DNA from: Botryllus schlosseri
Taxonomy: Eukaryota
DNA length: 64,000 bases
Assembly (NCBI GenBank): GCA_051294905.1
Contig: CM119371.1
Coordinates: 1,738,001-1,802,000, forward strand
Direction of reading: 5' to 3'
Under the pieces are notes generated by a model. The model did not search any database, was not told the DNA's origin, and worked only from the letters and a program-made list of their open reading frames with translations. The position numbers and the translations under genes are program-made. Each line of letters opens with the position of its first letter. Within the stretch, counting starts at the first letter, position 1. This document shows positions 2,483-64,000 of the stretch, piece by piece.

Positions 2483-2750
2483 ATATATACATTATACATA
2501 AATCGCATATTTATCCACCTCTACATGGACACAATTGTGTAAACTTCAAGTTTAAAGCATAGAGATCAAAAACAGTATTTAATGAATTTATTTACAACAG
2601 ATATTGAAGTCAATCAGACATCTATGATCGCTCGAAACTGTCAACTAGTTTTTTGAACTCTGTTGTATATCATATGCAAAACCCCTTGGTAAAGACTGCA
2701 CGCGAACATCAGTTGTATTGGAACGCAGCCAACCTCGTTAATGTCTGTGG

Positions 2751-2975
2751 CAGTGTTGGGATTAAGTCACTGCCTTCGAATCACAAGTCATCTCCAATGA
2801 TTGCACATTTTGACTCGAGTCGAGTCACTTGATTTTCATAGGTGGCAAGGGTCAAGTCAAGTCACTAAATTTTTGGAGGAGACCCGAGTCCCGTCGAGTC
2901 AAGTCAAGTCACGAGTGAAGTAACTAGTCAAGTCAAGTTGAAATTGCAAAGTGCTAGACATGATTCAAAGTCATT
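2751..2975. repeat. MITE end rich in GACTCGAGTC/AGTCA repeats
   Basis: CAGTGTTGGG start followed by many gagtc/agtca units. Same motif family as 30690-31191 and 37419-38362. Confidence 0.55.
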
Positions 2976-8822: not shown

Positions 8823-11800
8823 CACTAGAACTACCGGAACTTCGAACTACCTAGAACTACCATGTGGCTTTTTTGACGCATGTTGAATTTTCTTCGATTA
8901 AATGCATTTACCGGATCTAGAAATCAGCACCAATCTCAACAAACGGCATCAGAAACCACGGTTTATTGCGCTCACAGCTACTTGCAATATTTTACTTACA
9001 CCTTAGGTCAACACTTATAAAACAAATCGCCGTTTTTTGGTGTAACATATAAGGGTTGCTCTGGTGCGCATTTGGTATTTGAGCACGTTCTTAAAAATTT
9101 AGAGTAGGTCCCAGATCCTCTTTAGCCACATCATCATTGTTGGTTATTGCTGACATATCATAAAGCTTATCAGATAAGATTTGCATAATTCAATTTTGCA
9201 ACTAATCCTCGATTTGCATATTTTTAGAGTATCGGCATTTTGGCAAGTAGACGATCATTCACATTCTAAGAAAACATGCACGGACCATCGTCGACTTGTT
9301 GGTACCCTCATAGAATACTGCCTTGCAACCTGATCAATAATATCTCCCTGGTTTTGTTTCGTTATAACATTTAACCGTCACTGGTTTCTTGTTTGTGTTG
9401 TTTCTGAAGGAAACAGTTACCTCAGGTTGCAGTGAACTCAATATATATGTGTACAAATTCGATCTCTACACTGGCATCTCGCCGTTACGCTTATCAACAA
9501 GATGATAGCTTTGAAAAGTGTGGCTACATGAAGCTGCCTGTGTTCCTTCTGGTCCTGGGTAGCTTCAAGCAACTTTTGACAATAGTGTCAACTGGGACTT
9601 CGTTTGCTTCTCCAAGCGTATACACTATACAGCCACATTCACGTAACATTTTTTCGAGATGGATTACATCAGACTCTTCACATTACTATGCTTGGCAAAT
9701 GTATAGATTATGGAAGAGGTGGCCTGTCCTATCGTTGCCTAAATATGAGACGCCCTTGTACAGATACTTGGTAGAAGCAGCTTCCACCATCTGACATTTT
9801 ACCCTAATTATTTGCTGGCATTTCGACCATGTAATGAACGAAAACTATATTATCTTTATGGAATCCACACCTTTTTTTACTCCTTATGTCAATGGAAAGC
9901 TCATGATATCCATAAATCTGTTCTTCGAGAGGGCTTGACTAAACATAATGCACCCATGCCCTCAGTCCTCATATGCATTCAATTCACTAGATTCAGCTCA
10001 CTCTCCCCCAGAAGATCCATCTCGTAGACCGGAGTAAAGGCCCTTTTCCCTAGTCCAACCCAAGTATATTAGTATGGACAATACAGATGTCGGCTTGGTC
10101 AATGGTACATTTCAAATTTCATGTCCTGTAACACGCTGAGCTTCAGAAATACAATATTACAGAGCTTTGCCCAGGTAGCACGCCTACTTGGGTACCACAA
10201 GGTATCAAGGTGAGATGAATTGTGGTAACCAGCTGGTGAAACCAATCGGGAACCGTACATTTTTGGCCCCATATTACAGAGGTATTTTCTGGGGAACCAT
10301 GTGGGTAACCCACCAAGCTGATAGCGAAGACAATATTACGACCCCGGTCCTTGTGGCAGTAGCAATGACAGTGTACGCGGGCCGAGAAATCGATGCAGAC
10401 ATGTGCTGAGGCGATGTTAGGTAAATCCTACACGTTAGTTAACTTTAACACTGTATACTGTACAGTACATACCTGCTACCAACACTCACTCAAACCAAAC
10501 AGTATATACGGTAATCTGAGTATATAATAACCTTTACGGTGGGTGAGTGAGGCCATCATCGCTGTTTAAGTGTAATCGTTGAGTTATATTTTCAACTGAA
10601 CAAGACACACACAATGTACAATGCGATAAGATACAAAGCGATGTCATGAACAGATAGGAGGATGCTGACCGACGCGCAGTTGCCGTCTTTTAGACTGACA
10701 TCTACCTCGGCTTAGAGTGCCCGCCGTCACAGTTACTCTCGATGTTGATCATTTTCGAGGCAACGGCCCTTGCTAGCGATTTCCATAACTTGTGAGTGTA
10801 TTCGTTCGTCGAGTCATTCTCGGGTCTCGTGTTGCAAGAAGAGGAGCCCGGACAAACCTCCAACGGGAGTCGAACCGAGGCCGCGCTTATCGTCACCAGT
10901 ACTCGAATTCAATTCATATGGTGGTGGAATTCAATTTGGAAATGTCCCAGCGACCAGCATCGCAAATGAATAAATCGGAAACCGATTATAATATGACTTT
11001 ACTATATAGATGAACAAACCTTGCTGTAGGAAAATATAAGAGAAGCATCTATCTCGGAAAACTAATCAGTCACATGTGGGAGCCGTATGAAAAGTCGACC
11101 ATTCTTCATTGACGAAAATAACAAGTTCCAATTATTTGATCACAGAAATTTTACGAGTAAAATTAATCCTAAGTTAAAAATAATGGATACAGATAAGGGA
11201 TAAAGGTATTGGGATCTACGCAAGAAAATTATACCGCACGCTGTGAGGAATTGATCGAGTACTCTAGCAACGGAAATTTAAGTTCACTTCAGTGTGACAA
11301 ACGGTCAATTTTAAATAGTTCAAATCACATTGACGAAGTAAAGCATGGTAGGGGTTTTAATGTTCGAGGTTCGAGCAACCAACAGGGATAGCATAATAGC
11401 TAGAAAACTTTACTACATATGGAACCACCCGGGTGGCTCGGCTCTGAAGACTTTGTCATATCGAGCCTCCCGTCTACCTTGCATGTCGCATTTCACTGTG
11501 ACATTTTTGTAGTGTTATGTTGATATGTAATGTATACGAATAAAGATTCTCTCTCTCTCTCTCTTTATAATTCGATGAAATAAACCAAATAACATTGATG
11601 GAAAAGAAGGATGGTTCCTGTGTGGGTGATATATGGGAAATCTGAGCTCCTCCATAAGTGGATTTCTCATGTTTCAAGATGATTTGATATCAAAAACTCA
11701 ACAGGTAAAACTCGCCCGAGTTCAAATTGATAGGAACAATTAGAAGAGACTTATTGCAATCTACCTGGGATTGGTATGGTATAACCGCGCATCTTTATGG

Positions 11801-25373: not shown

Positions 25374-25520
25374 TACCTACTATAAGATGAAGTACATTTG
25401 AAAGTAGAAGCAAATCGAATAGTCGAATCGGTCAACCGTGATTCAGAGTTCAAATCCACACCAAACATGAAACTAAATAAATAGCATAAGAAAAATATAT
25501 CTGTAGCAGACCTTCATTAC

Positions 25521-43831: not shown

Positions 43832-44919
43832 ACGTAATGCATCTTTTGATACAGCTTGTCTCTCTTACACTCAACGCAGTTTATAGTATCATTTTTTTAA
43901 CTTTCTGTAATCGATGCTGCTGTCAGGTATAATGAAATCTGTCATGTCTGGATGCTGAACAGTTAGAGATTGAAATTGTACCACTGCAAAGTCACCTACA
44001 CCCCAAAGCCCACAAGGCTGCAGCAAGCTTTTGGTGCCTTGTTGACACGGAAAAGTACAGTGGTGAATGCGCAGCAGCTATGGTTGGAAGCGTGTTTGGT
44101 TCAACCTATCGTTGTGAATCCGCCTTTGCGTACACGACCGTCATAAAAAAAACTCAAAACACGCCTCATTAATGCACATCTGGAACACTCACTCAGAGTT
44201 GCAGTGTCACGTTACATACAAGAGTACTGCATACTAGTTGATAGCATGCACTGCCAGGCCTCCCACTGACTGGTATAAAAACAGATAACACGATGTCCAG
44301 TCTAACGTGTGACATGATTTATTTTAAAATTTGAGCTGACAGTTGTTGTATAATTTATATAAACATGGTGCGAAGTAATTCGTGATTTCTTAAAAAGTGT
44401 TAGTGGCTAGCTAGTTGAAATGAGATATTTTGATTTAAAAGACACACTTAGAAGTCTTACCGCTATGCGATTCCTGCCCAGTGCTATGAATATCAAAGCG
44501 GAAATTCCGTTTGGTACGGGTAAACGGTGGGAGTAAATGGAAGCCCGTCGCTTCAATCAGTACCCAAAAGTAGCCCTTGGTTGCAAAAAGGTTGGTGACC
44601 CCTGCCTTAAGCCATCGCTGTCGGGTTCGTGATATCAATGAAAATACTCCTGATATACTCATATATCATGTATGTTCATAGTTCACTGAGCAGGTTGCTA
44701 CTATATCGTTCCCATCGAATACGATTTGAAAATTGCTATGGTTCCCGCAATAGGCCTAACCGACGCGAAATTATGACCCCGAATGGATTGCTACGAAAAG
44801 ATGTGAATATTGCACCATATCATATCGGAAGAGGGGAGGCTTCAAAATTAGATAAATTACAGAATAACACATAATATAGTTTTCCTACGAAATGAATCAT
44901 TTGAAAATGTATGACTTAG

Positions 44920-45233
44920 TCGTATTCGATTTTCCAGACACCTTGCAATGGTGCTCAAAAGCTCGTCGTCGATATTGCAGTTGAATAAATCCAAAGAACG
45001 AAGGCTTTGATTCCTTGCTGCGAGCGATCCAACGATATGAGCTTCATCACGATTCAATGAGATCCCATATACGTTGATGACGGAAAGATCTTTCATAAGA
45101 TTATCGTCGCCCGATTCGTAGATTGCTGTATATAGTTCCATGCGAACATATCTGTCTTCGTCATCAGTCTTATCGTGAAGTTGTGAAAGGACCGATTGAG
45201 ATAGAACTTGTTGCTTCTGTGTTTGATCCGAGA
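44920..45233 (-). CDS. NLR gene exon, end of HD2 and first LRR
   Basis: ttgcttgacag acceptor, phase 1, in frame with the NACHT exon. Encodes ELYTAIYESGDDNL and the LRR SLRSLDLFNCNIDDELLSTIARCL. The expected phase-0 donor reads CTAAGT, so the 3' boundary is inferred. Confidence 0.8.
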
Positions 45234-45883
45234 CTGTCAAGCAATACACAATGTCGTTGTACCCGTATTTGTAATGTTTCTTCCGTAATGGTTTGCATAA
45301 CAATTGAATAATTCACGCGACTGTGATGAGGCAGGGTTCAGATGGAGGCATTGAGGTCCGATGTTTAGTTTACAATAACAAGAGCATTTCATGCGCATCA
45401 ATATCGCATGTTAGACTAAGATCGGGTCCAGAATTCATACTTAAGTGTTGGATGTTTATTTAGGCTCACCCTCCTGAAGCTGTATCTTTCAAAAAGCTTA
45501 GAAGTGGGCCCTGCTACAAGTCGGCGGATGCGAAATCAAAAATGCCAAAAAATAGGCCGGGTGTAAATGACTCCTTTGGTCGACAGACACCATAAATACC
45601 CGAAACAAATTTACAAAACAATGTCACATATTGATCATCGATAGGCCCTTGTAGCGCACACGTTCCATAATCTGCGAACTTATGAAGATTTTAGATATAT
45701 AAGTTTTATTTAGCCGACTGAATGTGAAGACTTATTTACCAGCCGTGTATAAATTTAGGATTTTTCGACTATTTCACCCCATCGATTGTGACAATACCAT
45801 CAAAGTCATGATAAACCATAAGTGACCCATAATAATCAATCGATGCTGCGGTAGAATAGCCGCGGAAAACCATGATTACTCAC

Positions 45884-47329
45884 AGCTGTGAAGATCGTTA
45901 TTTGATTTCATGTAAACGATGCCTGTAACGAATCTTCGAACCACGGACCATCGTTTCTCATGTAGATGTTGGCCATCAAAGCGAGAGAACATTTCGAGCT
46001 CCATTTCCGAGATAAAACTAGCCGCCAGAAATTCTTGCATGCTTTGATGACAGAAGAAGAATGTGAAGTCGCCTTCCATCAAGTGACGGCTTAGGATGTT
46101 GTTGCCAGGCACTTTCGTCATCAAATCCTGCACTTCGTCTGCGGAAACTTTAAACCGATCCAAATCTGCTTTGTAGAATACGACTCGCCCCTGTTTCATG
46201 CCTTCAAACGCCATTGCTTTCAATTTCTGGATAATCGAGAGGATTTGCTTTCTGTTTCGCATATTTTCCACACTCTGCAAGACTAACATGATCCTGCTGT
46301 ATAGTTCTGTCACGGTAGACGGAGGAGGTCTATCTGGATCAATTCCCATCACCACTGCTATCAAAATCAGGAAAACCGGGACCGATACAAGTTGTAATAA
46401 TCGCGGTGACATGATTTTGATTTTCTCCCAGAGATGCTTCCCGTTCTCACGGAGCAGAGACGTGAACAGTTTATAAGCATCTTGTGGCGTGAGACCATTG
46501 AGTGTGATTATTTCTTTAGGGCGTGCTTGCGCCGGTAATTCGGAGACTTTGAATTCACGTGACGAGACGATGATCCTGACGTGACGAAGGATTTTGCGGG
46601 ATAAGATATTGTACATGATGATCGCAGAGCTCGCTTTCTTATACGGTGTAATCTTTCGGAGGCTGCTCTCCTCGAAATCCCACTGCATTTGATCAAGCCC
46701 GTCAAAAATGATAATTGCATCACTTTGATTGTCGACCAGCCATTCAAAAGCTTGGTCCTCTTCAGATTCATTTTTGAATAGACCGTCGAACAGGAACTTG
46801 GATGTTTTGATACCGTTCTCTTCATCCATGTTCTTCAATTCAATATAATGTATCATTTTTCGTTTCGGTTCACCGTTGTCACTCACAGATGACATTCCGA
46901 GCGCTTTTTGAGCAATTCTACGCATGAGGGTGGTTTTACCCGATCCTGCAGACGCGACGATAGCAGTGTAGCCAACTTCATAATTTGACGGTGACGGTAA
47001 TTTCTCATACTTTGACAGCGATTCCATTATCTTTTCCATAGTTATCGATTTACCGTCGTTGTCGGATTGACGATAAAACCCGACTTCCTCTATCAACTGA
47101 CTTTGAAAATCTTTTCTTCTAGATCCATGAACAGTTTCGTCCGTTGAAGATTTTTTCTCGCGAAAACGGCCTTTGTAGTAGTCATCAACATCGACTTTCT
47201 TCATCTGCGGGAAAACCTTGAAGTCAGGTTCGTGGACGAATTCATTCTTGAAGTCTTCACAAATTCCACTTGCCGTTTCTTGACGCGTGTTGCCGTTTAT
47301 AACCTCTATCAATTTCTTGTAATTAACGC
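45884..47329 (-). CDS. NLR gene, NACHT NTPase exon (NBD, HD1, winged helix, start of HD2)
   Basis: Covers ORF 45876..47312. Walker A ASAGSGKTT, Walker B IIIFDGLDQ, sensor-1 VSSR, HD1 VPVFL, WHD FCHQSMQEFLAA, then RWSVVRRFVTG. tttttctgcag acceptor, gtgagt donor, phase 1 to phase 1. Confidence 0.95.
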
Positions 47330-49046
47330 CTGCAGAAAAAAGAGCTTAAATTAGGAAAAATATCAAAACTGCCACGTCATCTTGCCAGTAAGAAATTACT
47401 ACAAATAATATTTTCTTACACTAGGACACTGTCATCAAGCTTAAATTTTTGCAGCTACATAAGCATGACAACCACTCTAAACGACCAAGAGATCGAGTGT
47501 TGCTCAATCAAGCCTAAATCAGTTATGATATTCCTCAGAAATCTAATCCTGCCTATGCTTATGAACTTTATTGCTATCTTCTCGCCCTCCATTATCTCCA
47601 ATGAATCATTACAAATATTTACCCTGTAGTAGATCAGTCTTCCTTAACGCGACAAGACTTATGCCGCCTGTTTTGCTTAGAAAACTGAGCCGCTGTCCGC
47701 AGAGTAGTTGTCATTGTTGTCGCCAATATGGTTGGTTGAGTTATTATATTGTGACGTGGCAACCTTGACAGCGGCTTAACCTAAGGTCACGGAAAGGTAG
47801 TAGGACGTTCATTGATTTCGTAACAATTGGTTTGTAGCTCAACCTTTCATGGCACTGGAGCATTTGCCATTTCGTCCGATACCGAAATCAAAATCCAAGA
47901 ATGGATGCCGGATGCCGCGACGCGGCCAGAGGTCGACTATTAGACCAGAGACCAGAGATCGAGACCAGAGATCGACTAATAATTCAACACGGTGTAGTGG
48001 GCGAGTCTGATATCATAGAAATGTTGAATTAGGCGAATTGGCGGGACCGTTATACGATCGGCAACGCAGGACCATAACAGCACTTTGTCAGACCCACCCC
48101 CCTCCCCGGAAAAAATCATTGGTATTGTGGCCCCATAGGGTGATATGCCCGACTTTTCGGGTAAGAAGTCCATCTGGCTTTACTTTTGGGGCTGCTACTT
48201 ATCAGCGAGTTTTGTGTACTGTTTGGCAAGTCAGCTTTAGTCGTCTAGACTCGCGAGAGACGAAATTTTTATATAATTCATGACTAAATCGGTCAATATG
48301 ATCAGGAATTGCATATATATATTGTTATCAATTTTTTATTTCCTCTCTGCTCATTTAACCAGATTTATTGGTAGAGCTGAGTGAGTTGTCTTGGAAAATG
48401 TAGGGGCCGTTTATAATGATGAAACAACTTCGGGCGGACCCGTTGGTATAATGATTTTATCGCATGATGTTATTTAGTGACCTCCTGTCTGCTATGTCGA
48501 AAGATACTGGCAAATAATTTTTCCCTGCGAGATGACATCTGTCTTGTGGGATTCAAATTTCAGCGCCATTTATTTAGCGGCTATGGACAACTAGACAATA
48601 TATCGAAGTTTTCGGTCAGCATAGGGGCAGTCTTTTTCAGCCAAGGATTTCTCTCTGGCGATTTTCCTGGCACACTTCTCGGAGTCGCATGTGACATGGT
48701 CTAAAACCACATGTCTTGGTGCGTCGTGACACGGTAATGGCCGAGGCCGAAATGTCAATTTCTCTAAATAATGCGCATTTGTTCTTGGGGAGGTAACCAA
48801 TGCTCAGGATATTTGGCAACAATAAATTGCGCGCAACGCGGAACATTTATGAAAATGTTGGATATCTATGAATTTCCCAAATTTCCAATTTCGTGAGGTT
48901 TGGGGTACCACAGAAGCCAGAACACTAATGAAATCTTCAAGACTTCCAGGCCTGGCAAAACTTCTTCACATATTTTGAACATCATTGTAAAGCAGACCCT
49001 TCCCCCAAATTTACAGACCGTATTGATTAAATAGCATCATACTCAC

Positions 49047-49193
49047 TTTGAATCCTGGAAGGTGTTTCTCCTTCAGCGCCAGTAATGCTGTAGACGATTT
49101 GTTTTACATTTATTTGATCTCCGGCCACGACGTTCACAGAGCTTTTCGTGAACTTCAGATTGACATTTTCTTCTTCGGCCAAAGTTGCGGATC
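49047..49193 (-). CDS. NLR gene exon 2, N-terminal segment with RHIM-like/amyloid-like motif
   Basis: ttcttag acceptor and gtgagt donor. 147 nt open, phase 1 to phase 1: SATLAEEENVNLKFTKSSVNVVAGDQINVKQIVYSITGAEGETPSRIQ. Joins the NACHT exon in frame. Confidence 0.8.
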
Positions 49194-50451
49194 CTAAGAA
49201 ACACATTTTTATTGTATACTGCTTGTCAGGTTCAATATATAGCCTTATAACAAAATGATATGGATTCTATTATTTTCTTCGATGTCCTTCGGATTATTAT
49301 TTGCGTAACAAGCAAAATGTACGGTATTTGAATAACTTCACAACTGTTCCAGATGGATAATATTATCATGTATTATAACAGATCTGATCTCAAATACTAG
49401 GCTACTAACCGCTTATTACGGAGGTCATTGATATAGGCTTGACATAAGCGACACCAGAATCGTTATCTTTACCCTCTTCTGGCACTCCACTGATAAGGTG
49501 GTACTAATTAGCTAGCATATATATGACGATGCTGAAAATATTTCTTAGCATTCTATGTTGAATCCTTCGAATTTCATAATCAATAACTTTCTCATCAACA
49601 GTCGTAACCTCTCATGCCATCAAACTGTCCGTTGGGATAGCCAGCATTCTTGTGGCCTTTTGTTGTGATATGGCTATAAAAGGGGCAGGATATTTTTATT
49701 GTTATAAAGGAGGGCGTGTCTATTAAAGCATGAACACCACTGTTTCACGGCATTGTCTTTAAACGATTGTAGATTGCAGCCAAAGTCTGAGAGGCCTGAC
49801 ACGCGATTATTCATGCAAGCGAATAGCGATGATATCTTGCGCACATGGCCTGTTGTAGGCCTACATACAGTGGCGGCTCGTGACAATATCGGGTGGTGGG
49901 GCAAGGGCTGCAAGCGACTTTTTATCACGATGACGTCACAATGACGTTTTCCAACATAAACAAGTAACTTGATGGTACGGTAACATGAATTTCCCGACAA
50001 CAGTGATTTTAACGTATGTGCCACGAGAGGTCTGCCGGTGAGCTGTGCCTTCAAGTGTGGTAACTGCGTAAACGGCGTACGGAACAAAGATTCAACACGG
50101 TTCATGTTCGCACGTGACCTCACTAATTATCTGCAGAAATGGAAATGACTATAACTCAAAAGATTTGTAAGCCTAAATGGAAAGGTTAACGAGTTCGGAC
50201 ACATACGCAATTTTTATCTCGTAGATTCGGCCTGTCATATTGAATCAAAAACATCATTCTGAAGAACTCGGAAGTTCGGTCTCGGTACAGCATAGGAGAT
50301 GTTGGCCTTGAAACTGGAGACTGTAACACGACACATACGGCTTACTGTATATATGTCTGCTGCGAAATCGCCTATGCAAAATATATTACCGAATAAATAC
50401 GTGGATGAAAGTCGTAATCTTAGTACACTGTTACATGACATCGTATTGTCA

Positions 50452-50560
50452 GATTCTATAGACAACCTAGTCGCTTCGACATCTTCCTTTCTTTCATTGT
50501 ATCGCATTTTTTGTGGTGTATTGAACTGATAAAATTGCTAATAAACCAATGTTGATGATA
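50452..50560 (+). mobile_element. Short 3'-tail copy of the same CR1-like LINE
   Basis: Reverse complement of about 42600-42712 and 54705-54821; aataaa followed by a degenerate gat tail. Confidence 0.8.
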
Positions 50561-50809
50561 TCATCGAGAAGTAGCCTCATGACACTTTTTGGTATGATGC
50601 ACTGTCAAAATTAATACGGACAGACCAACACCGAATTTTGCGTAAAATTTACTGAGGAATAGGCCTATCAAGGGATCAGCTATTAGTCGCCAGCTATCGC
50701 GCTTGACAGGGGTGAAATTGACATTGGAGAATATAAAGTAAAAGTAAATATTTGAATGCAAACCGAGAATGTTAGTAAACTGTTTCATGATATCATCATC
50801 TCATCACAT

Positions 50810-51581
50810 ATCTCAGTATGGAACACAGTTAACGTTAGCACAGATACACCGGCTTTTGCGTGAAATCCGCAATGCGTTATAGGTAGGCTAAAGTGTCAGA
50901 TCAGCGCACATCTCTACCATACTCGACCTTGATAACAAAATTACTGCCATAATCATTGAGTGTCAACCTTGAGACTTGGCACAGCGTTCGATACTAAAAT
51001 CAAGACATACCGTGTAAAAGCTCATGACGGATCTAGGTAAGGAGCATCGTTAAAATCAATAGAGACCAATACCGGCTTTGCGTAAGATCTGTTTGCGATA
51101 AATGACGAGTCAGTTCTCACTCGACTTAGGAAAAGAAATTACCACCAACATAGTTCAGTGACAAACTTGAAACTTGGTACAGCGTTCGATACTAACATTA
51201 AGACTTACCGTGCCAAATGTCATGACCGATCTCGGTATGGAACATCGTCAAAATCAATGGATACCAATACCGGCTTTTGAGTAAAATCTGTTTGCGATAC
51301 ATGACGGATCAGCACACACTCAACTTCGGAGACGGAATTACTACCCTAAACTTTAGGTAGAAACCCTGAAATTTGGGGCAGTGTTAACTACCACCATCAC
51401 ACGACACGACATACCAAGTTTCAAGAATTATCATGGTGTGAAACACCATCAAAATCGACCTATACCAGCAAAGGTCGACTAAACGCATATGACGGTAAAA
51501 CCGAGTTCAGACATAGATACGATTGTTACATCACACCTTAAGGGCAACAGAGCTATGTTGCCCCGGTTGCTCGGCAATTTT
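50810..51581 (+). mobile_element. Helentron/DINE-like element with ~198-bp internal tandem repeats
   Basis: ga(a/g)acttgg.acagcgttcgatacta unit at about 50971, 51169 and 51368. 3' hairpin GGGCAACA..TGTTGCCC (51542-51563) followed by ctcggcaattt. Confidence 0.6.
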
Positions 51582-54026
51582 ATGAATAGGAGAGAGTAAA
51601 TCACCGTTTCTTTATTGTGCGCGGCTTTGAGAGAATAGACAGTCAAAGCTTGTTATGAGCGCTACCAGGGCATGCCCCGGCTATACATTCGCAAAGCAAA
51701 AACACAGAAGAGAAGTCGATTTTCTCAGAGACTTCGCTATATATGGGCATTTACAAGCGAACTAATAAGAAGAATGCGATTTTCGCTGTGATTTCAGTAT
51801 ATATCGATTGCTGGGCATCTTAAATGGTAAAGAATTGTTATTGAACAGAATTTTAGGTGGGGCAATGCCCCAGTTTCCCTATAGGACGAGCCGCCACTGC
51901 CTACATACGATTGCTCAGGTCGGTTGTTGACGCGAACAATTATTGAGTATTGCGAGCGGGTGCAGATATCCAATCCACTACCCAATTATGCTCATGTAGC
52001 CTACAAATGACAAACCAATTCAGCAGGATATCACATGCGGCTCTGTGCAGCGCGGACGAATCTTGCTAATTGGCAACACGTATGTTGCCAATAATTGGCA
52101 GCGCGTAACACTGGTAATACGAATTATGCGAATCGCGATTGAAAACAAACACAAAGAAGGATGTGATTTGAAGTTTTATTTTGAGGGAGATTTTTTTCAA
52201 GAATTGTTGTACTCATGCGTAATGTGCGCCCCCTTACAAAAATCGGGAGGTAAGATTTTGCACAGTATAAGTGAAAAAAACTATGGTAACTCAGTATACA
52301 TGGACGGGCTACTCGTGAGCCACTTCAATTTTATTCTAGTGACTTTGATTCTAAAGCATAATATATATGACATAAACTTATAAGGAAATATATTACGTTT
52401 TCATAATTTTGTACCTTTCTATGCGCTCAGTGCATATGCTTGACAGACCGACCATCAGCTATTCAACTAACAGCAATACGCATTCTCCAGTTACTCTTAT
52501 CAGAGGCATCTCCGGATCGGTGCAATGTGCATCATTCAAAATCTAGTGTTAGTGCATGGATGGTTCGATCATCGCAATGATGACAGTTGAAATCGTAATA
52601 TAATCAAGATTATTGACGTTATTGAAACACGTTTCAACACAAATTAGACTTGTTCCGAGTGCAAGAAACGAATTTTGTTCGGATGGCTTCGTGTCCCCCT
52701 AATATGCTTCTACGCCGTCTAATGGAGGTGTGCCCCCAGTTTGAGAAACACTGTTTTAGACCTTAAAATGCATTTACCAGTACCTTTGATTTTATTTTAT
52801 TAGGCCTACAACAAAATAGGGGGTATTGTTCCATCTGTGAGGATCATGAGAGCTTTGCAATGTCTCAATTAGCAGAATAAGGTTAGCCTATGCAACTAGA
52901 TCAATATATTATAGATATACAGTGGTTCCAAAACAGTGAGCCGTCACAGAATCCCAGGTGTGCTGTAAGTCCTTCTGGGATTTTGAAGAAAAACACTGTA
53001 TAATATTGAAGATTGGGCAATGGGCATGCAGACCAGCAGAGCGGTCAAACTTTTACAGCATACTGATAAATAAAGAACAGACGCCCAAGTGCATTGTCCA
53101 TGAAATCAATCCTGGCATTGCCAATGAATATGGTAATGTCTCTAAATCATTATTGGGCGACTATGTCTAGATCAAAAGTTATTTTTATTCCCTTCAAATC
53201 AACTCATAATAACGAAATCGTGCCACAAATGTTTGCACAATGCCTAGAATTCAATATACACAACAATACTTTCCATGAATTTCTGTAAACATATAGGCCT
53301 ACAGGCTAGTAATCAACTCAATTGGAAGCCATAAATCAAACCACCGTTTTCAGAAGAAGAACATCTCATTGATGTACTGATTGCCTTTATTTTGTGATTT
53401 TGTGATTTAATTTGTGATGTCCCTTTCAAATCCTATTCCATGATAAGTGCAATCAACATTTATTGTTATCTGCACCTTAACAGGTTTATTTGTATATCTG
53501 TTTCTTTCATTTTGGCTGAAATAAAAAGGCGTAACCGAGATACACTGCTCGGAACACAACAATATGCAGGCATGTTACTGAATGATTAAAAATAGTTTCA
53601 GTGCAAGATATATTTGCATAAACAAGCATAGCCAACGCATACACGCGAATCGATTTGTAAGCAACCGAAAATGTGTCACAGTAAGCCTAAAAACTTTGGT
53701 AACCACTTTATATATATATAATAGGGTTGCCATATTTTGGTTTGACAAATTCCGGACGCTCTTCAGCGCCCCCTAGCGGATTTCAAAATGAGGTATGGGC
53801 AGTGAGCACATTGTCGATCAAGATGACGTCACACAAGCCATGCTTTGTCTATCAACTAGAGGTGGTCAGTGGTCATGATCCAGTTCAGGAGTATGTGGTT
53901 GTATGTTGTAAGTTGTAACTAGGGCCGAAGCCACACTTTTTTTCAGCCCCCTTCCCGACAAAATAAACACTGATCTTGGGTCCACCGTCAGTGAATCGAT
54001 GCAACTTCTGGGGGCTTACTAAATGC

Positions 54027-54543
54027 TAGGGCTGGGCAAAATCGAGTACCTGAGTGATTCGATTCTGAATCACGTGAAATGCTTCGAGTCGAGTCGAGTA
54101 ATCGAGTATCACCCATTATGACGTCACAACATAATGTAATATGTCGAATTTCAAATATGTACCTTTTATGCGACCTCAAAGACTATAATTCCTGTTATCC
54201 ATCACATTAAAGATACTTTGGTATTTTTTCGACCATGCCGATTTCATTGCACTTGGTGACAATGTTGTGGGATAATCATGGCTTCGGAAATGTGTTATTC
54301 CTAGTAACGTTCGTAGCTTTGTACTATATCTTTGGTATGCTACGATACGGCCAATCAAGGCTCCAAGGCTTCAACAGTGAAAATTAGTATCGAAACTATA
54401 ATTCTCGTTGATAAATTAGCTTTCAGTGGCGAGGAGAGTATAATTTCAGTACTCGAAAAAATCGTATTTTACTACTCGACTCGAATCATTAAAATTAATA
54501 CTCGATTCAGATTCGAGTACTCGAATCATTGTGCCCGGCCCTA
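54027..54543. mobile_element. hAT MITE with CGAGTA/TACTCG arrays
   Basis: TIR TAGGGC(T/C)GGGCA, perfect TSD CTAAATGC. Confidence 0.88.
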
Positions 54544-54703
54544 CTAAATGCATTTGGCCGTTGATTTATTTGAATGAATTATATCAATAATATTGGTTCT
54601 TCGATATCCTATATGATCAGCGAGTTAGCGGTAGACCTGGTGGAGGATGATGACTTCGAAAATGTAATGAGCGTAATTGTACATCGCTAAGTCATGTTCA
54701 TGC

Positions 54704-56640
54704 CATCATCATCATCATCATTGGTTTATTAGCAATTTTATCAGTTCAATACACCACAAAAAATGCGATACAATGAAAAGACAGGAAGATGTCGAAGCGA
54801 CAAGGAGCAGTCTATGGAATCTGTATTTCGACTTGAATGTGGACAATAGGGTTGTCCATAATTTGGAAAATCTCAAAATTTATGCGTATCCATGTCTCAT
54901 TCTATAGATTATAGTCAAAAAACGTCAATGAACCTGCAATAAGCTCACGGGAAAGTCGTTAACATTTGTCTAAATGCGTTTGAAAGTAGCTGCCGTAGAG
55001 TAGGCGTGTCAGCGACCATAGAACGGCAAGCAGACTAGTAATCACGAAATCACGGCGTTTGATTGGCTAATCTGCTACTCTTCAATGATCACGATATTGG
55101 CGGCTTGTTGGTCAGCTGGTCAAGGAATCGGCTAACGCCGGTGATTCTGTAAGCGCATTGTAGGTTGGACCGCCAATCATGATTAAGGATTAATTCAGAA
55201 CATGTTGAGTAACGAAACACATGATGAACAAAGAACAGCTGCTTCACAATATTTTCAAATACATGACATGATGGCTTATTGTGAAGGTAACCGTTGTAGC
55301 CTGTATGCCTTGATTTCATTGATGGAAAGCACAAAATCAAGCGGAAAAATATTGCAAAGGCGCTTATGCAAGTGGCAAACGAATTTCTAGTTTCAGAGAG
55401 GATGTAACATCATTGAATACAAATATAAAGCTGGACATTGACACTACTTTGTCTGATCTTATTAGGCTGTTGTCGTGGTATATAATTGAAGTCTTGAATG
55501 CTGTAAGGGCTGGATGAATCTGTCATTTATGCTTGGCACTTGTCAGATTATTGCAGCATAATGAATCATACCTGCAAGTGCTGTCAAAGTCCTCAATGAT
55601 GCCGCGAAAAGAAGTCTAAAGATAAGCACAGACTATGCTGGTAGGACCAGCAAAAAGACAGTTTGCTTGCATTGCTTAGCATCTCCTTAATGAATCTTAG
55701 ATCATTACCGGCTGCATCACGACTAATATTCTTGAATCAAACCAGACATGGACATAAAAATGATGTATTGAAGCGGTGTGGTAGTTACACTCTTCTTCAG
55801 AAATCCAATGTAAGCTACCTGGTCGGCCCACATATCTTCTGAGCATACAGGATTGTGTCCAGAATCCATATCACACGGTATGCTGCACCAGTTTGGCGAT
55901 GTCTAATATACCTTACCTCCACCCAGAAAAACAGGACCACTTGGTGTAATCTCAAGCATATCAGATATGTAGGCTATTTCTGGTATCTATACTTACTTCT
56001 ATAAGTTCACAATCACTGTTTCACCTCTGTCATGCCTGCAGTAGGTTATTGTTGCACTAAAGCTATCGATACCTAGTTTTAACCCTAAAACATTCAATGA
56101 CCAGATGTCTCATTTTATTATTAAATCACCAACCTACAATGCGCTTACAGAATCATTGCCGACAGCGAACTTCTTGAACTAGTATAAGCACATAATCAGC
56201 AAGCCGCTGTGGTCGTGACCATTCAAGCATAGCTGATTAACCAATCAAGAGACATGATTTCGTGATCACTAGTCTTCTCGCCGTTCTATGGTCGCTAACA
56301 CGCCCACTCTACGGCAGCTACTTTCAAACGCATTTAGACAAATGTTAGCGACTTTCCTATGAGCTTATAGCAGGTTCGTTGATGTTTTTTTTTATCAATA
56401 ATATACATAATGAGACATGGATACGCATCTTTTTTGATATTTTCCAAATTATGGACAACCCTAGTGGACATGCTCGTCGACTGTCGGATGGCCGGCGGGA
56501 TACTGTTCCACACATCAGGTCCGGCATATTTGATAGAGCGATGATCTTTTCGGTCGATCATATGATATTTGGACGACGTGGACGCGCGTGTGTTGTAATT
56601 GTGTGCTTTTGATTCCGAGGTAAAGAAGTCATTTTAATAT
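54704..56640 (-). mobile_element. CR1-clade LINE 3' fragment interrupted by a hAT element
   Basis: AHNYNTRASTSS...SIKYAGPDVWNSIPPAIRQSTSMST at about 56464-56610 continues across the insertion into 54704-54846, which carries the (GAT)n tail. Confidence 0.85.
54847..56463. mobile_element. hAT (hATm-like) element with ~320-bp TIRs
   Basis: TIR TAGGGTTGTCCATAATTTGGAAAAT, TSD GTGGACA(A/T). The uninterrupted target gtggacat is seen in the LINE copy near 42932. Confidence 0.9.
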
Positions 56641-57371
56641 TCGGGGCAACGACCGCAGTGGAACTGATACATAAACTTGTCACACCGATAAGATTATGCG
56701 CACTGCACCACCGAGCTATATATACGCCGCATATCCGGTGGTCTCCGACCTTTTATGGTCGCGATTTCATTTCCAATTCGAAAATGTTCCGTGGTCCAGT
56801 TCAAAATTTGATGAGCTGATTAATAATTAAAGGTTGGCATATTTCTCCAAACTTACTCATGGTCTATTTTCGAAGCTGATTACCCCATATTAAAGGCAAA
56901 CTACCCCAGATTTAGAACGTCTATATTTGAATAAAGCATCCAAATGGCCTAAGCCGACTCTATGAATGTACGTTATCTTTTAATTGCGATTACAATTAGA
57001 CTTATTTTTGTAAATGAATGTTATTTTTATTTATTTTTGATCGCAGTTTTTGCGAGGGTGTTTAGTCGCCATAATAAAACCAAAATACATGATACTAAAT
57101 CGCGCGCAGCGGGAAGAAAAATTTCATGTAGCATAAATTTTCCCAAAAATAATGTTGTTTATGCTGATTTACGAAAAAATTGTGAGCTCACTTCAAGCCT
57201 TCAAAATTCCGGACATTTAGGCATATTTTAGAAATTCCTCCCGGACGCAGTTTTAACAGTGAAATTCCGGACATGTCCGGGAAATTCCGGACGTATGGCA
57301 ACCCTAATATATAACCAATTCATATTGATAATATCGATCACACGAATAGCAGTAATTAGGGATATCCTAAC

Positions 57372-57444
57372 CGGTAGCTACGGCTAACGACGATGAAGGC
57401 ACATCAGTGATACCAGAATCTTCACATCGACGCCTTTTCGCCAT
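57372..57444 (-). CDS. NLR gene, putative first coding exon (MAKRRRCEDSGITDVPSSSLAVAT-G)
   Basis: ATC-ATG-G start context, 16 nt downstream of an atttag acceptor (57461-57466). Open 73 nt ending phase 1 at a gttagg donor, matching the phase-1 start of exon 49047-49193. Confidence 0.55.
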
Positions 57445-59003
57445 GATAGGCCAACTATCACTAAATATTAAATAGCTCCTGTATGAAACAATTACCTAAA
57501 ATGCAATAACAGTAGTTACGCTTTTCCAAGAACTTCATATGCATAAGATGCGGAGAATCAAGTCAGCAACTGCAAACGGACACAAATTTACCAGTCCAAT
57601 TATCCATGTGAAATTTGATCACCGTTCAGGAACAAATCACATCACCTATCCAAGAAGCAAACAATTTTTTATATGTTCATGTCATTTACATGGAGTCCAA
57701 CACCAACCTAGCGATCAGTAACCGTCAACAACTAAGCTTCTAGTTCAGGATTAATATTCCAGTAAAATTTATTAATCCCGCTGTACAACCCACGCCAAAA
57801 CTAAGAAAATACTGGAACTGAACTTCAAAACCTATTATTCTCAGTGAGCAGTTCTAGATCTGAAACTGTTTCAATTTGAACGGGTATGATCCATGACTGG
57901 CAACCTGTCATTCCTCTTATGACTCTAAATAGCAATCCTGAATGTCAAGCCATGCAGTCGAAATTAACAAAGTATGCCTTCTGTGCAGAGCAGCAAAGAA
58001 AGGATTACACCACGCTCTCAGCAAGTGTCCGTTTTGGCCTGATGAAGATTAGCAATGAAAAATGGAACTCGCTCGTTATCAGAGATAAAAAAGAAACGAT
58101 TGAGGATTCCAAATATACCACTACATTGCATTGTGACTCGTCTTCTATAAACTAGTTTTCTATCCTGGAGCTACTACACAGCTACATTGCCTTCAGTACT
58201 GCAAACCGACTCGCCACTGAACTCTAACGAAATTGTGGAAATGTTCGGATCCAGGAATACCAGTAGAAATCCCGTTGCCGACCAAATAATATCAACCAGA
58301 GATGAAGAGTATTTCAAAGTGTCAAACTGACGAGAAATAACGGTATTTTATAGAAACCTAGGGTTCTGGTAAACATCATGTTGCGTTTGATCAAAATCGC
58401 ATCTAATCAAAGCAATAATACAAATCATGATTATTTTGATATTTTGGTTTTTACTCATAATATTAACAATAAAAGAACATGGAAAAATGACGACCAGGCC
58501 AGATGCCAATCGAGGCAACGCAGCATATCGCATCAACTCAATAAAGCGCGACTGGGAATTACCATACGCATTGTTTAAAATGGTCAACCTCACTGACAAT
58601 AATTTGTCGCTAGAATAGCCATTAATCCGCTCCGAGACCTGTGGAGTATGGCTGGGTCAGGGTTCTAAACAGGTCACAAGGCTCCGACTTACACGTCAAT
58701 CTCACTTTCACAATTTTAACTCGAGTCAAGTCGATCACAAAGACAAGACCGAGTTGAAGTCCGGGTGTACAACTGGCATTATATCTGGGGTCGCATAAAT
58801 AGTACAATGTAGCCTACATATTTGAATTTCTCACGTCGCTTATACAGTTGTGATATCATTAGTCAATAATGTGTGTTACTCGAATACTTGATTTTAAGCC
58901 TAATACTCGATTCAGAATCGCATTCGTCAGGTGTACGATATCGACCACCCTTAATATCGAGTCAAATAGGAATCATATATAACACTAGCATATGTATCAT
59001 GAG

Positions 59004-59889
59004 TAGGGCAATTTTTTTTTGACATGTCATAACAACGCAAAATTAGGTCAAAATTGTAGCGTTAGGTCAAAATTTGTCAAAATTGTTTACAAATTCAAAC
59101 ATTTTTTGACCTCTGCATTTCGTTTGTATCGTAGATTTTGCGCTGTCGGTGAACTTATCATTTGATATTTTACAGCTTGTAGCCTACTTTATAGGTCTAC
59201 CGTTGTGAACGGACCATCGTCTGCTCATTGTGAATCATAAATGGTCAAATGAAACAAATAGTGACATGGTTTTATGGTCAACGTACCGCAATATCCTAGC
59301 TGAAGCAAGACTGCTTGGACATCGCATGGTTCTTATATCAAGAAGCGCAAGCTGAAAAATTGTGATATAGACGACATTGCCAGAATGAAGCAACACGGTT
59401 TGTCACCAGCAGTGTGCACATAACTTGAGTGTTGTCAGCCAACAAATGCTGCTGTTGAACTTTCTTTCTCCGTTCTTGGCAAGCTACGTAGTAAGGACAT
59501 ACACTTTCTTCCCGAGAACGTAGGAAAGGATCTTTCGTTGTACTACAACAAATTTTAATTATTTCCACCAGAATACGGAATGTAACCACTGGAATTCTTC
59601 ATAGGGCCAGATTTCGTTAAAATACTAGTTTTTCATGTAAAAATATGTCAGTTTTTAGTTTTTGAGCCAAAAACGTTTTTTCAAAAAAATCTACTTTGTA
59701 AGGACAGACAGTTCCAACCAGAAATGAAGATAAGTAGTACAATTTTAACATTATATGTGCAAACACCTAATTTGCATACGTGAGGTCAAAATTTGGTCAA
59801 ATTTCAGTTTTTTTAGGTCAAAAAAAGTCAAAATTTAAATTTTTTAGGTCAAAATCTTCCGTTTTTTAGGTCAAAAAAAAATTGCCCTA
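59004..59889 (+). mobile_element. hAT deletion derivative with C-terminal transposase remnant
   Basis: TIR TAGGGCAATTTTTTTT, TSD ATCATGAG, aggtcaaaa arrays. Remnant CQPTNAAVELSFSVLGKLRSKDIHFLPEN resembles the hAT dimerisation motif P.S..VERSFS. Confidence 0.85.
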
Positions 59890-60260
59890 ATCATGAGCAA
59901 TCTTCTCTCGAAGCTGCGTGCGTTGCATTGATCATGAGTATCATTGATGCTCATGGGGTGGTCTCTGGATGCGATAAACTAAGTCTGGTTTATGCACAAT
60001 TCGCAATGCACATCCAATAATAAACCCAATTCACGCATCATCTCCCTAGAAAATAAAACAGCGGCTAAAGAAAATCCACGAAATCAGCGCAGTGAACAGA
60101 AAATAAAAAAATCAAGGTTAGAAACTTGAATTAAATCGCATTGATTTAAATCAGCCAAATTTAAACAAGAATCCAACCTCTGACTGGGTTTTAGTGTGAC
60201 TTCGCAGATTCTAGTTTATTTTCATACATTTGCCTGAAATCCAGGGGCATGTATACTCAT

Positions 60261-60866
60261 TAGGGCTGTTCAAAAATAATTTCTTTCTCCTGATTCCAGC
60301 CTTTCACTTATTAAATTGTCAGGTTACCATAAAAAAACTCTGCACACCAAATTTGATTCAATTCTAACAAGTATAGGACTCCGCAGATCCAATTGAAATT
60401 TTTAATTTAATTTTTAATTTGAATTCTCAATTTTTTTGCCAATTCCCTGAAATTGTTGAGCTGTCTTCAAAGACGATGCAAAACAAATTTGACTCAATTC
60501 CGACCAGTAAAAGCGGAGTTAGGTGAGTTTTTTGTTGATAATTCTCGAATTATCCACCGATCAAGGATAATCCGAGGATTATCACCGAAAAACTCACATA
60601 ACTCCGCTTTTACTGGTCGGAATTGAGTCAAATTTGTTTTGCATCGTCTTCGAAGACAGCTCAACAATTTCATGGGGATGGCAGAAAAATTTGAGAATTT
60701 ATTTTTTAATTTTCACTAATAAATTAAAATTTTTAATTGGATCTGCAGAGTCCTATACTTGTCAGAATTGAACCATATTTGGCGTGCAGCGTTTTTTAGG
60801 GTAACCTGACAATTTAATCAGTGAATGGCTGGAATCCGGGAAAAAAAGGTATTTTTGAACTGCGTA
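60261..60866. mobile_element. Near-perfect palindromic MITE
   Basis: tagggctgttcaaaaata ... tatttttgaactgcgta, arms of about 300 bp, centre near 60570. Confidence 0.8.
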
Positions 60867-61713
60867 TTAGGAATGTTTAAAAATACCTTTTTTCCCGGAT
60901 TCCAGCCATTACGGCAAACTAGTTAAAAAATGTTGATGCAGGGGTGGGCTAACTACTGGGCGAATGCGGAAAAATCGCGCATGTGTTAATTGGAATCGCT
61001 CTCTGCATGTGCAGAAGTATTCATATTTATAAGATCTATACATTTTGGCAGGAGCGTATTTCAAGCTAGCATGGTTATACCGCTGTCAGCATTGTTACCT
61101 GGATTTGAACTAAAAGAAGAGGATGCAAATCTAATAACAGATCACTGCTCACAGAATCTAATCGCCGTCCTGTTCTAAGAATCGGGACAAATGCTAGGCT
61201 ATCAACCCTAATTTTTGAAAATTGGTTATTGAGGTTGACCAGCTTATGAAGTCAGATGCGTGTAAGATATTATCAAGCCAATGGTTGGTTGGTTTGTTAG
61301 TTTTAAATACACATTATTCTCGATTTGGACTTGGTCACAAGAAGAGCCAGATATGATCCGCGATACACCGGTTTACCAATTCTCACTGATGTAAATAACA
61401 TGCTTCATGGAGTATTTTTCGAAAGACATAAATCAGGCCATATTTGCCAAGGAAAATGTTTCATAGTAGTGTAAGTAGTTGAATATCACAAACACTTTAG
61501 TTTGGTAAGAAATGCCGTTAAGAAACCTACTTGGATAAAAAAAAAAAAGTCGAAGTACTTCATTGCTGGCTTTTTGTGATCAGACCTGATATCTGCGTAC
61601 TATTGATATTCGGACATGCTTCGGTGATGATATCTACGCATCAGAAAGAGCCCAAGAATAATTCAAAACTCGCATCTGCGCAGTATTGGGGGCCGGGTAT
61701 TCTTCGGAACTGA

Positions 61714-62028
61714 TTTCGATATAACATTTAACCGTCACTGGTTTCTTGTTTGTGTTTTTTCTGAAGGAAACAGTTACCTCCGGTTTGAGTGAACTCAATA
61801 TATATGTGTACAACTTCGATCTCTACACTGGCATCTCGCCGTTACGCTTATCAACAAGATGATAGCTTTGAAAAGTGTGGCTACATGAAGCTGCCTGTGT
61901 TCCTTCTGGTCATGGGTAGCTTCAAGCAACTTTTGACAATAGTGTCAACTGGCACTTCGTTTGCTTCTCCAAACGTATATACAGCCACATTCACGTAACA
62001 TTGTTTCAAGATGGATTACATCAGACTC
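61714..62028 (-). mobile_element. Isolated internal piggyBac transposase fragment
   Basis: Near-identical to 9357-9676 (compare ORFs 9432..9794 and 61789..61998). No TIRs or TTAA. Confidence 0.88.
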
Positions 62029-62530
62029 GAACATCCTGCTATTGCAACCTTTGATTTAATATCAAACACTAGAATCGAGCTCCTGTTACGCATCGAATTC
62101 ATATTATGCCTGTAAGGACAGTATCAAATCATTTTTTACAATTACAGAGTTCTCTGTAACATAGTTTTGTTGTGGCTGCGCAATCTCTAATTTGTTTACA
62201 ACAATGCATTTTCCAAGTACTTCGGCCGCGTGAGGCGAAACCAGTGATGATTAGTTCTTAAGAGTTTCGCCTGTGACTCATCACTATGGACGAGCTATCT
62301 GCCCGCCTGAAAATTATCATCAATGTAGTGTACAGTTCATCGTTACGACAAGTATCAGCATAATATTTCAGTTGGTTGATGACAGATATTGGTGAAATAA
62401 GCTCTATACGGATTGAGTCGACATTGCCATGTCATTGGGAGTTTATTTTTATACGAGTCGTGAAATACATATATTGTAGTTTTAACAGGTTTATATGTCA
62501 TACATGGTAAGCAGGTTTATAGCTCTATAG

Positions 62531-63574
62531 CAGGGGTCACCAACCTTTTTGCAACCGAGGGCTACTTTTACGTAATGATTGAAGCGGCGGGCTACTATTT
62601 ACTCCCGTCGTTTACCCGTGCAACACTGAATTTCCGCTTTGATATTCATAGCACTGGGCAGGACTGGACATCAGCATGTTATCTGTTTCTATAGCAGTCA
62701 GTGGGAAGCCTGGCATTGTATGATATCAACTAGTGCGCTGTGCTCTGGTATTTAACTTGACACTGCAATTCTGAGTGAGTGTTCCAGATGTGCAATAATT
62801 AGGCGTGTTTTGTGTTTGTTTTTGATGAAGTTTATGTCCGAAAAGGCTGATTCACAACGATAAGTTGAACCATAGACGCTTGCAACCTTCGTAGCTGCTG
62901 CGCATAGACCACTGTACTTTTCCGTATCAATAATGCACCAAACGTTGCTGCACGGTGAGGTGGGGGTCATTTTGCAGTGTTACAATTTCAATCTCCTACG
63001 GTTCAGCATCCAGAAATGACAATACCGGACAGCAGCAACGATTCCGGAAAGTTAGAAACATGGTATATTAAACTGCGTTGATTGTAACAGAAACAAGCTG
63101 TGTCAAAAGATGCAATACGTAATGGGTATACAGATATTGAAAATCTGCTAGTACTTCACGGCTATCTGAGTCCGAATAGTAATATTGTTTACTACTGTGG
63201 CATTGTCCTGGTCGTCGAGCTATCATATCGGAACCGCCACCATTTCAAGAAGACCGTGGGGCATTCAGTCATGTCACCTGTATAGGCATTGCGCCGTACC
63301 ATGAATTTATGGTGATTCTATATCACATATCTATATAGGCCTATTGCTAATTGTAATAGAAGATAAGTGTTTATATATGTAAGTTACATGTTAGTGTGTT
63401 TTAAACAAGAATAGCTGAATCGATCGATCTATATATTTAAAAGTTCATTGGTAATAATCTGACGAATATTGGTAATTGCTGTTATTCCACCTATTTTTAG
63501 AATGGGCTCGCGGGCTACTCATTTAGTCCTCGCGGGCTACCTGGTGCCCGCGGGCACCGGGTTGGTGACCCCTG
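62531..63574 (-). mobile_element. Buster/Charlie hAT deletion derivative, 1044 bp, uninterrupted
   Basis: TIR CAGGGGTCACCAACC, perfect TSD CTCTATAG. ORF 62752..62970 carries YGSTYRCESAFSDINFIKNKHKTRL..HLEHSLRIAVS (hAT C-terminal dimerisation region). Confidence 0.92.
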
Positions 63575-64000
63575 CTCTATAGTCTATATATATTTGAGTG
63601 GCAACTTAGCTGGGACACGCTACTTCATCATAATAAATTCTACTCAGGCTTTTGATTGAAGTGTGATATCAAATAATAATGAAAAAAGTAGCCAGTGGAA
63701 GATTCCATTGTAAAAAACAACTGCTGCAAAACCCCATAATGCTATGTTATCTTGTCGATATGTAAATATATTACATAATAAACATTAGCAACACTTCGCT
63801 TTAGCTGCTCGCAAACTGTTTTATGCCTTTGTGACGCTGTGTTCATAATAGCAGTATAGGTTATCCAATCGAGCATAAACAATACTAACTTAACAGTGCC
63901 TGTACCAGACTGCATACTCGTCACATATGCTGTAACTTACTGCACGAAGCTCGGGATTGCGTTACATCGCTGCGAACGGATTCCTGTGCGGTGTATGAAC

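Follow-up and report, generated by a model that had tools for sequence, protein, structure and literature searches.

Which signalling module does an animal NLR carry when no death-fold domain is recognised in front of its NACHT domain? This question is raised by a locus of the tunicate Botryllus schlosseri, located in a stretch of 64,000 nucleotides (contig CM119371.1 of assembly GCA_051294905.1, positions 1,738,001 to 1,802,000 of the forward strand) that was analysed as a whole and is called the window below; all positions refer to it. In other NLRs, homotypic signalling modules are found at the extreme N-terminal side of the NOD module. In the window, a NACHT exon on the minus strand is preceded by an exon of 147 nt, and the initial annotation read the peptide of this exon as a RHIM-like amyloid motif standing in for a death-fold domain. 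Our analysis partly confirms this observation and partly supports the interpretation. The explanation that we favour, with about even confidence, is that the peptide is a non-globular interaction motif of a new, lineage-specific family, placed at the N-terminal end of a tunicate NACHT-(LRR) receptor and distinct from the RHIM.

The motif exon, its parts and the NACHT exon are listed below; a slash marks an exon boundary.

49047..49193, minus strand: symmetric motif exon of 147 nt (phase 1 at either end), acceptor ttcttag/GA, donor CAAA/gtgagt
49090..49167, minus strand: core peptide NVNLKFTKSSVNVVAGDQINVKQIVY, exon residues 9-34, the segment named in the initial annotation
49111..49137, minus strand: near-invariant nonapeptide VNVVAGDQI, exon residues 19-27
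49204..49206, minus strand: in-frame ATG, a possible alternative start (MCFLG...), four codons 5' of the motif-exon acceptor
45884..47329, minus strand: large NACHT exon, 1446 nt, acceptor ctgcag/GC, donor AGCT/gtgagt, phase 1 in and out

Read from the sequence, the minus strand at 49047-49193 is ...ttcttag/GATCC...ATTCAAA/gtgagt. The acceptor context (tgtgtttcttag/GA) is rated good and the donor CAAA/gtgagt corresponds to the consensus. The exon comprises 48 full codons, and its phase-1 translation, SATLAEEENVNLKFTKSSVNVVAGDQINVKQIVYSITGAEGETPSRIQ, consists of a conserved motif of ~30 residues followed by a variable, Pro/Ser/Glu/Gly-rich linker. Given the exon length of 147 nt, both flanking introns are in phase 1 (symmetric exon). 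The NACHT exon starts 1.7 kb downstream in a compatible phase. Exon bounds, phase and translation all agree with the initial annotation, as does its placement of the motif on a phase-1/phase-1 exon of its own, directly upstream of the NACHT exon. The methionine of the in-frame ATG stands in the place of a threonine (YTIKMCFLG/S in the window vs ITIITCVLG/S or a close variant in related copies) and is not found in the aligned copies; judging from this comparison, the ATG is probably fortuitous. Since it is not conserved, an upstream coding exon is needed for the motif exon. The locus is not high-copy: the bin of the motif exon has a DNA-contig depth of 0, compared with thousands in the neighbouring intron repeat bins.

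The peptide belongs to a small family of related sequences. A phmmer search with the exon peptide against 1.84 billion representative proteins returned ten matches at E <= 1e-3. Six of these are open reading frames (ORFs) of 73-124 residues that contain the motif exon between diverged flanks (E 5.4e-12 to 2e-4, 59-71% identity), and the remaining four are unrelated repeat proteins; no long protein carrying the motif is present among the ten. A profile search gave two further copies of the motif exon (E 1e-8 and 1.2e-3). The window exon was aligned with these eight copies from public assemblies, and the resulting nine-way alignment has the motif consensus LAEGENVNQxFxxSxVNVVAGDQIxxNxxVYxI. VNVVAGDQI is exact in six of the nine copies, the others reading LNVVAGDQI, VNVVTGDQI and IKITAGDLI. 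E6, G24, D25 and I27 are invariant, L4, A5, F14, S17, N20, V21, V22, A23 and Q26 are kept in eight copies and N30 in seven. The core contains no proline among the 241 residues of the nine copies and is composed of 17% N, 17% V and 10% I, whereas the last 12 exon residues form the variable linker. The initial annotation had looked to conservation among paralogues for support, and the eight further copies bear this out strongly.

The pattern of conservation follows the exon boundaries. Pairwise identity amounts to 57% in the exon core and 32% in the exon tail; in the flanks it is 64% across the six codons that precede the acceptor, 46% across the four that follow the donor, and drops to 27% and 12% further out. 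This fall beyond the splice-adjacent codons points to a spliced exon under constraint and not to a repeat element. The codon following the exon encodes Gly or Ser in all nine copies, which fits a retained phase-1 GT donor. On sequence grounds, we take the motif exon to be a real coding exon that is maintained by selection.

Some observations on the copies stand apart from this argument. For both P0034 and P0043, which contain different copies of the motif exon, the longest contig measures 1619 bp; the two may be tandem neighbours on a single contig, in which case some genes would have two motif exons. P0041, a protein of 397 residues with three repeats of ~130 residues, contains a stretch (GGDQTHVNQVSYSFAGMAGD) that resembles the second half of the motif (AGDQINVKQIVYSITGAEGE; E 8.5e-4, 31% identity), probably a chance similarity. 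When metagenome contigs were scanned with the pattern VNVVAGDQ, 121 stretches matched and none was confirmed; a scan of such contigs with a NACHT profile gave one locus (L001, 21% identity), which lacks the motif. In the passages covered by a literature search on NLRs, amyloids or RHIMs in tunicates, the motif is not described.

The gene downstream of the motif exon is, by its domain composition, an animal-type NLR, as initially annotated. The large exon encodes a pre-NACHT region of ~105 aa, a NACHT domain with the Walker A sequence GSGKTT, and a winged-helix/HD part. Pfam assigns NACHT (E 2.8e-19, 70 bits against a cut-off of 26.7) and NOD2_WH (E 2.2e-6), and the best solved relatives are NLRP7, NLRP2, NLRP6, NOD2 and NLRP3. 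The closest named relatives are 12 NLRs of Styela clava (31-35% identity), followed by TIR-NACHT proteins of Clavelina lepadiformis. In addition, ten public-assembly ORFs share 41-51% identity with the NACHT exon. The leucine-rich repeat (LRR) part of the gene is weak and is confined to the next exon:

44857..45233, minus strand: end of HD2 and one LRR-like unit, acceptor gacag/TC, donor after 44942 or read-through to the stop codon at 44857-44859

A tblastn search with Styela NLRs covers 45264-44929 at this exon, and its match to LRR_6 (E 7.2e-4, 19.9 bits) stays under the 23.4-bit cut-off. On the minus strand between 20000 and 46000, an LRR-pattern scan gave one match, besides one spanning stop codons at 25422. 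Neither the LRR pattern scan nor tblastn with LRR regions of Styela proteins revealed another LRR exon on the minus strand in 20000-44856. Six other long ORFs of the window yielded no Pfam family, and the whole window yielded no Rfam match.

The relatives of this NLR show what can stand in the place of the motif. In tblastn searches, homology of all the Styela proteins begins at 47345-47300, the start of the large exon. Upstream of this boundary, the family is heterogeneous. P0002 of Styela clava contains two Death domains (Pfam Death, E 4.5e-5), and the Clavelina relatives have a TIR domain (PF13676) at the N-terminus; P0002 and P0007 of Styela and P0013-P0016 of Clavelina thus combine Death or TIR N-termini with the same NACHT family. 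Six other Styela paralogues (P0003, P0004, P0005, P0008, P0010 and P0012) have a 69-residue unit rich in V/I/N/Q/E/T/A that belongs to no Pfam family and is present as ~4.3 copies in P0004, ~5 in P0008, 2.3 in P0003 and a single one in each of the others. Differing N-termini before a fixed NACHT-exon boundary indicate that this NLR family swaps N-terminal modules at the point where the window has the motif exon. The motif occupies the place of Death domains, TIR domains or long tandem repeats in related tunicate NLRs.

With the six repeat-bearing paralogues, the window gene shares the NACHT family, the boundary and an N-terminus of comparable composition that is likewise of non-death-fold type and without a Pfam family. 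The two types differ in that the 69-aa unit is repeated up to ~5 times in Styela, whereas the window has a single motif of ~30 residues. An octapeptide resemblance (NVVAGDQI in the window, NVTAGEAI in Styela) is not significant; in Smith-Waterman comparisons of the peptide with nine Styela N-termini, 13 to 226 of 300 shuffles reach the observed score. The Styela repeats may themselves be an undescribed repeat-type NLR effector module. For P0003 residues 1-175, the ESM Atlas model is similar to proteins with beta-strand repeats, DUF4097 among them (TM 0.57-0.69 by query), and an AlphaFold2 (AF2) model of P0003 built on a nine-sequence alignment has a pLDDT of 21-33 for residues 1-230, which carries no structural information on the repeats.

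A death-fold domain ahead of the NACHT domain was sought along the remaining upstream sequence, which contains two elements of the exon chain proposed initially:

57372..57444, minus strand: putative exon 1, ATG GCG AAA ... ACC G/gttagg, 24 codons plus 1 nt
49194..57371, minus strand: putative intron 1 of that model, 8.2 kb, repeat-rich, with no recognisable domain exon in a Pfam scan of its ORFs

None of the 124 minus-strand ORFs of at least 35 aa in 47346-64000 matches Death, CARD, PYD, DED or TIR at E <= 0.01, in line with the initial view that a death-fold is lacking before the NACHT domain. The same scan gave two irrelevant sub-threshold hits and nothing else. Pfam gives no death-fold match in the pre-NACHT segment of the large exon, and when P0002, the paralogue with Death domains, served as tblastn query, no sequence upstream of the NACHT exon matched at E < 1. 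In the proposed chain, 73 + 147 nt place ~73 residues ahead of the NACHT exon. A scripted join of putative exon 1, the motif exon, the large exon and the next exon is open for 680 codons.

We propose that the motif acts as a homotypic or adaptor-recruiting interaction motif. Oligomerisation through the NACHT domain would bring several copies together, and the clustered motifs would then bind, by pairing of beta-strands, to the same motif, or a complementary one, on a partner acting downstream. This pairing may be cooperative and amyloid-like. Both the interaction function and any amyloid state of the motif are inferred.

A number of results weigh against this reading. The motif exon is known to adjoin a NACHT exon in this window alone; the eight other copies lie on contigs of 915-1619 bp, and we infer that they belong to NLRs. 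A six-frame search of the 64 kb window found no second copy of the motif (best other score 5.7 bits vs 92.5 for the exon). The initial annotation proposed scoring the peptide with RHIM and fungal amyloid-motif models; none of the nine copies matches Pfam RHIM, HET-s_218-289, Ses_B or NACHT_sigma at E <= 10, and the window peptide does not match Pfam RHIM at E <= 1, thresholds that are to be read with the HMMER filters in mind, which discard most matches above ~E 0.1. The PDB, searched by profile at E <= 10, yielded no RHIM, RIPK or HET-s chain, and the single match, a flagellin hook IN motif protein (E 0.57), is noise. The alternating hydrophobics ascribed to the core do not stand out either: in the nine copies, 9-61% of composition-preserving shuffles reach the observed beta-amphipathic moment. 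No significant relation to the Styela N-terminal repeats emerges. The exon profile scores at most 1.1 bits against 31 tunicate proteins, with shuffles scoring up to 6.1, and hhalign of this profile against 14 Styela repeat units gives P 0.067 with a probability of 0.8% (reversed control P 0.23).

The remaining points of this kind concern the gene model. The donor of putative exon 1 agrees with the consensus at 4 of 7 positions, and 10 of 261 candidates (segments of 49194-64000 that start with ATG and have a phase-1 GT donor) score higher. Three raw RNA-seq runs of the same species label and one contig run were compared with 44500-64000, 6-13% of each RNA run being read. RNA depth does not exceed 0.43 on the bins of the NACHT exon and 0.2 on the bin of the motif exon in the three runs, and no joint of the NLR gene is found among the 15 joints listed of 36. 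Almost every mapped read fits a repeat over part of its length (in run X17, 2076 of 2101), and run X9 behaves as DNA, since its contigs cross introns. Of the exon chain put forward initially, the pieces exist, give the ~73 residues and join in an open frame; the chain itself is not confirmed, since none of the listed joints connects them and exon 1 is not singled out from other candidates. Finally, the LRR region may be very short or the gene truncated at its 3' end, and a domain exon is possible beyond position 64000 or split into ORFs of <35 aa.

Among the alternatives, the one that survives best, although we regard it as unlikely, is a short linear motif recognised by a folded protein, or else a site of regulation or processing; beta-strand docking or cleavage after the invariant Asp would be examples, and no amyloid or prion-like templating would be involved. 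A sharply conserved nine-residue core with an invariant G-D between variable flanks is typical of such motifs. The AF2 monomer of the exon peptide is compatible with it: mean pLDDT is 56, the maximum, in block 21-30, is 70, and there is almost no secondary structure, a low-confidence model that shows no folded domain. The absence of similarity to amyloid families and the strand amphipathicity at chance level point the same way. However, most docking or cleavage sites are shorter than the conserved stretch, which spans ~30 residues from L4 to I36 and in which N, Q, S and G recur, and the motif is located where NLRs usually carry their homotypic signalling modules. Two further predictions were made for the exon peptide: a four-copy complex prediction (made without alignment and without controls) scored 0.02 against a mark of 0.32 and speaks neither for nor against an assembly, and the best ESM Atlas score, 0.77, is under the usable range.

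It is clearly less probable that an effector domain resides on missed exons, upstream of the window end or split into small pieces, and that the motif is a linker or accessory segment before the NACHT domain. An upstream exon is required, putative exon 1 is one of many candidates, 6.6 kb of sequence lie upstream of it, and one Styela paralogue does have Death domains. Against this stand the scan of ORFs of at least 35 aa over 16.6 kb upstream and the tblastn search with P0002, both of which came back without such a domain, and the far better conservation of the motif than of the linker that follows it (57% vs 32% identity).

Equally improbable in our estimate is the more specific idea that VNVVAGDQI represents an undescribed, non-RHIM prion-like motif on a shufflable mini-exon, which would template a partner with the same motif and of which the Styela repeats would be a pre-stacked, solenoid-like version. 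The case for amyloid is speculative and drawn by analogy, from a location N-terminal to the NOD, a short linker, a length of ~30 residues, a Pro-free composition of N/V/I/Q/G, conservation on both faces of the central strand and a fold-less AF2 model. In the putative gene model the motif resembles the fungal (HET-s/NWD2, PP/HELLP-PNT1, sigma) and bacterial (BASS1-10) motifs, in which a NOD and repeats likewise follow a short motif and linker and which measure ~20-40 residues, are N/Q/G-rich and Pro-free, and form lineage-specific families. It differs from them in that no effector copy was found within the 64 kb and in showing no similarity to Pfam HET-s, Ses_B or NACHT_sigma. The host is an animal with split genes to which the logic of gene clusters is not applicable.

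Another explanation, to which we give a very low probability, is that the exon lies outside a functional NLR transcript, as part of a decaying or silent paralogue or of a different, unannotated gene. The almost complete lack of RNA coverage in the three runs, the single LRR-like unit and the 8 kb repeat intron would fit such a copy. The open join of 680 codons, the intact Walker A, the conserved NACHT motifs and the intact splice signals argue against it. NLR expression is often weak and restricted to few cell types, which, together with the small part of each run that was read, reduces the weight of the low coverage.

The RHIM itself provides the most detailed comparison. The core tetrad of the RHIM is given as (V/I)-Q-(V/I/L/C)-G (PMC9444067), and RHIM, PP and BASS3 are reported to have a G-phi-Q-phi-G signature in common (bioRxiv 10.1101/2020.01.06.895854). 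In the RHIM, a conserved Asn C-terminal of the core is followed by a variable position and then an apolar residue (PMC4262963). The pattern of the cRHIM, found in insect and crustacean PGRP-LC/LE, Imd, STING and SRB2, is VxxG (PMC13506858). The tetrad occurs in none of the nine exon copies and nowhere in the scripted protein of 680 residues; G-phi-Q-phi-G is likewise absent from all nine copies and from the conceptual protein. The tetrad position reads VVAG in seven copies, VVTG in one and ITAG in one. The cRHIM pattern is present in eight of nine copies, and 27% of random 46-mers of equal composition also carry it, which leaves it almost no discriminating power. N30 lies six residues after the Gly in the seven copies that have it, and the residues that follow are variable. 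By every feature that could be tested at the sequence level, the motif is not a RHIM, and the RHIM likeness described initially is not upheld.

Likenesses to the RHIM system do exist. Alongside the RHIMs of RIPK1, RIPK3, ZBP1 and TRIF, a RHIM-NACHT protein of amphioxus, BF82280, has already been described bioinformatically (PMC4262963). As in BF82280, a short, non-globular motif is located N-terminal to NACHT in the place of a death-fold in the window gene, a likeness at the level of architecture. Like the RHIM, the motif is rich in V/I/N/Q/G, has a Gly-Asp in its core and lies beside an apparently disordered linker; unlike the RHIM, it lacks the tetrad, the G-phi-Q-phi-G signature and any profile match in all nine copies. 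With the cRHIM it shares the minimal VxxG (VVAG) and the setting of an innate-immune receptor, and signalling without an obligatory death-fold is conceivable. It differs from the cRHIM in that the host protein is an NLR and not a PGRP or Imd; VxxG, the pattern by which the two were compared, is too loose for membership. That the motif is a divergent RHIM or cRHIM templating a RHIM-bearing kinase or adaptor by RHIM-type amyloid is the least probable explanation and can be set aside as extremely unlikely: VVAG fits VxxG (PMC13506858), Gly-Asp recalls the RIPK3 string GVQVGD and a RHIM-NACHT architecture is known from amphioxus (both PMC4262963), and the Asn six residues past the Gly is kept in most copies, but neither core signature occurs, V..G is frequent in random peptides, no Pfam RHIM or RIPK/HET-s PDB chain is matched, the spacing of the conserved Asn is unlike the RHIM pattern, and tunicates appear to be without RHIMs according to PMC4262963.

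Our preferred explanation, a new non-globular interaction motif of a tunicate NLR, has consequences for how such receptors are annotated. Amphioxus already provides, by bioinformatic description, an animal NLR in which a short motif replaces the death-fold (PMC4262963); the motif family and the lineage are new. Many invertebrate NLRs are annotated without an N-terminal effector domain, and the locus illustrates how a well-conserved candidate for signalling can go unnoticed on a 147-bp exon to which domain libraries are blind. According to reviews including PMC13506858, RHIM and cRHIM are so far the only signalling amyloids of metazoans, whereas fungi and bacteria have many families. If true, a new NLR-linked amyloid motif in a chordate (tunicates being the sister group of vertebrates) would broaden the metazoan picture. 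If the motif is an ordinary docking motif, it still marks the signalling handle of an NLR family. With ~30 residues and three invariant core residues (G24, D25 and I27), the hypothesis is directly testable by synthetic peptide.

The surroundings of the locus are rich in repeats. DNA-contig word depth is 480-9900 in most bins of putative intron 1 vs 23-140 on the exon bins. This intron contains an element at 54844-56466 with inverted repeats of 194 nt (54917-55110 and 56197-56390, 86% complementary). In DNA contigs and in a few RNA reads, position 54845 is joined directly to 56465 with 1619 nt skipped, which shows that copies or alleles without the insert exist and identifies it as a nested mobile-element insertion. 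A tandem repeat of 198 bp (~2-3 copies, 82% matches) is located in the same intron at 50879-51397. RNA run X21 covers it at a depth of ~16-17 with fixed differences, which indicates that related repeat copies are transcribed elsewhere. The NLR locus as a whole is bracketed by 44071-44605 and 62530-62898, where three adjacent inverted-repeat pairs, 77-90% complementary and ~18 kb apart, probably represent a single repeat element that is present twice, in opposite orientations.

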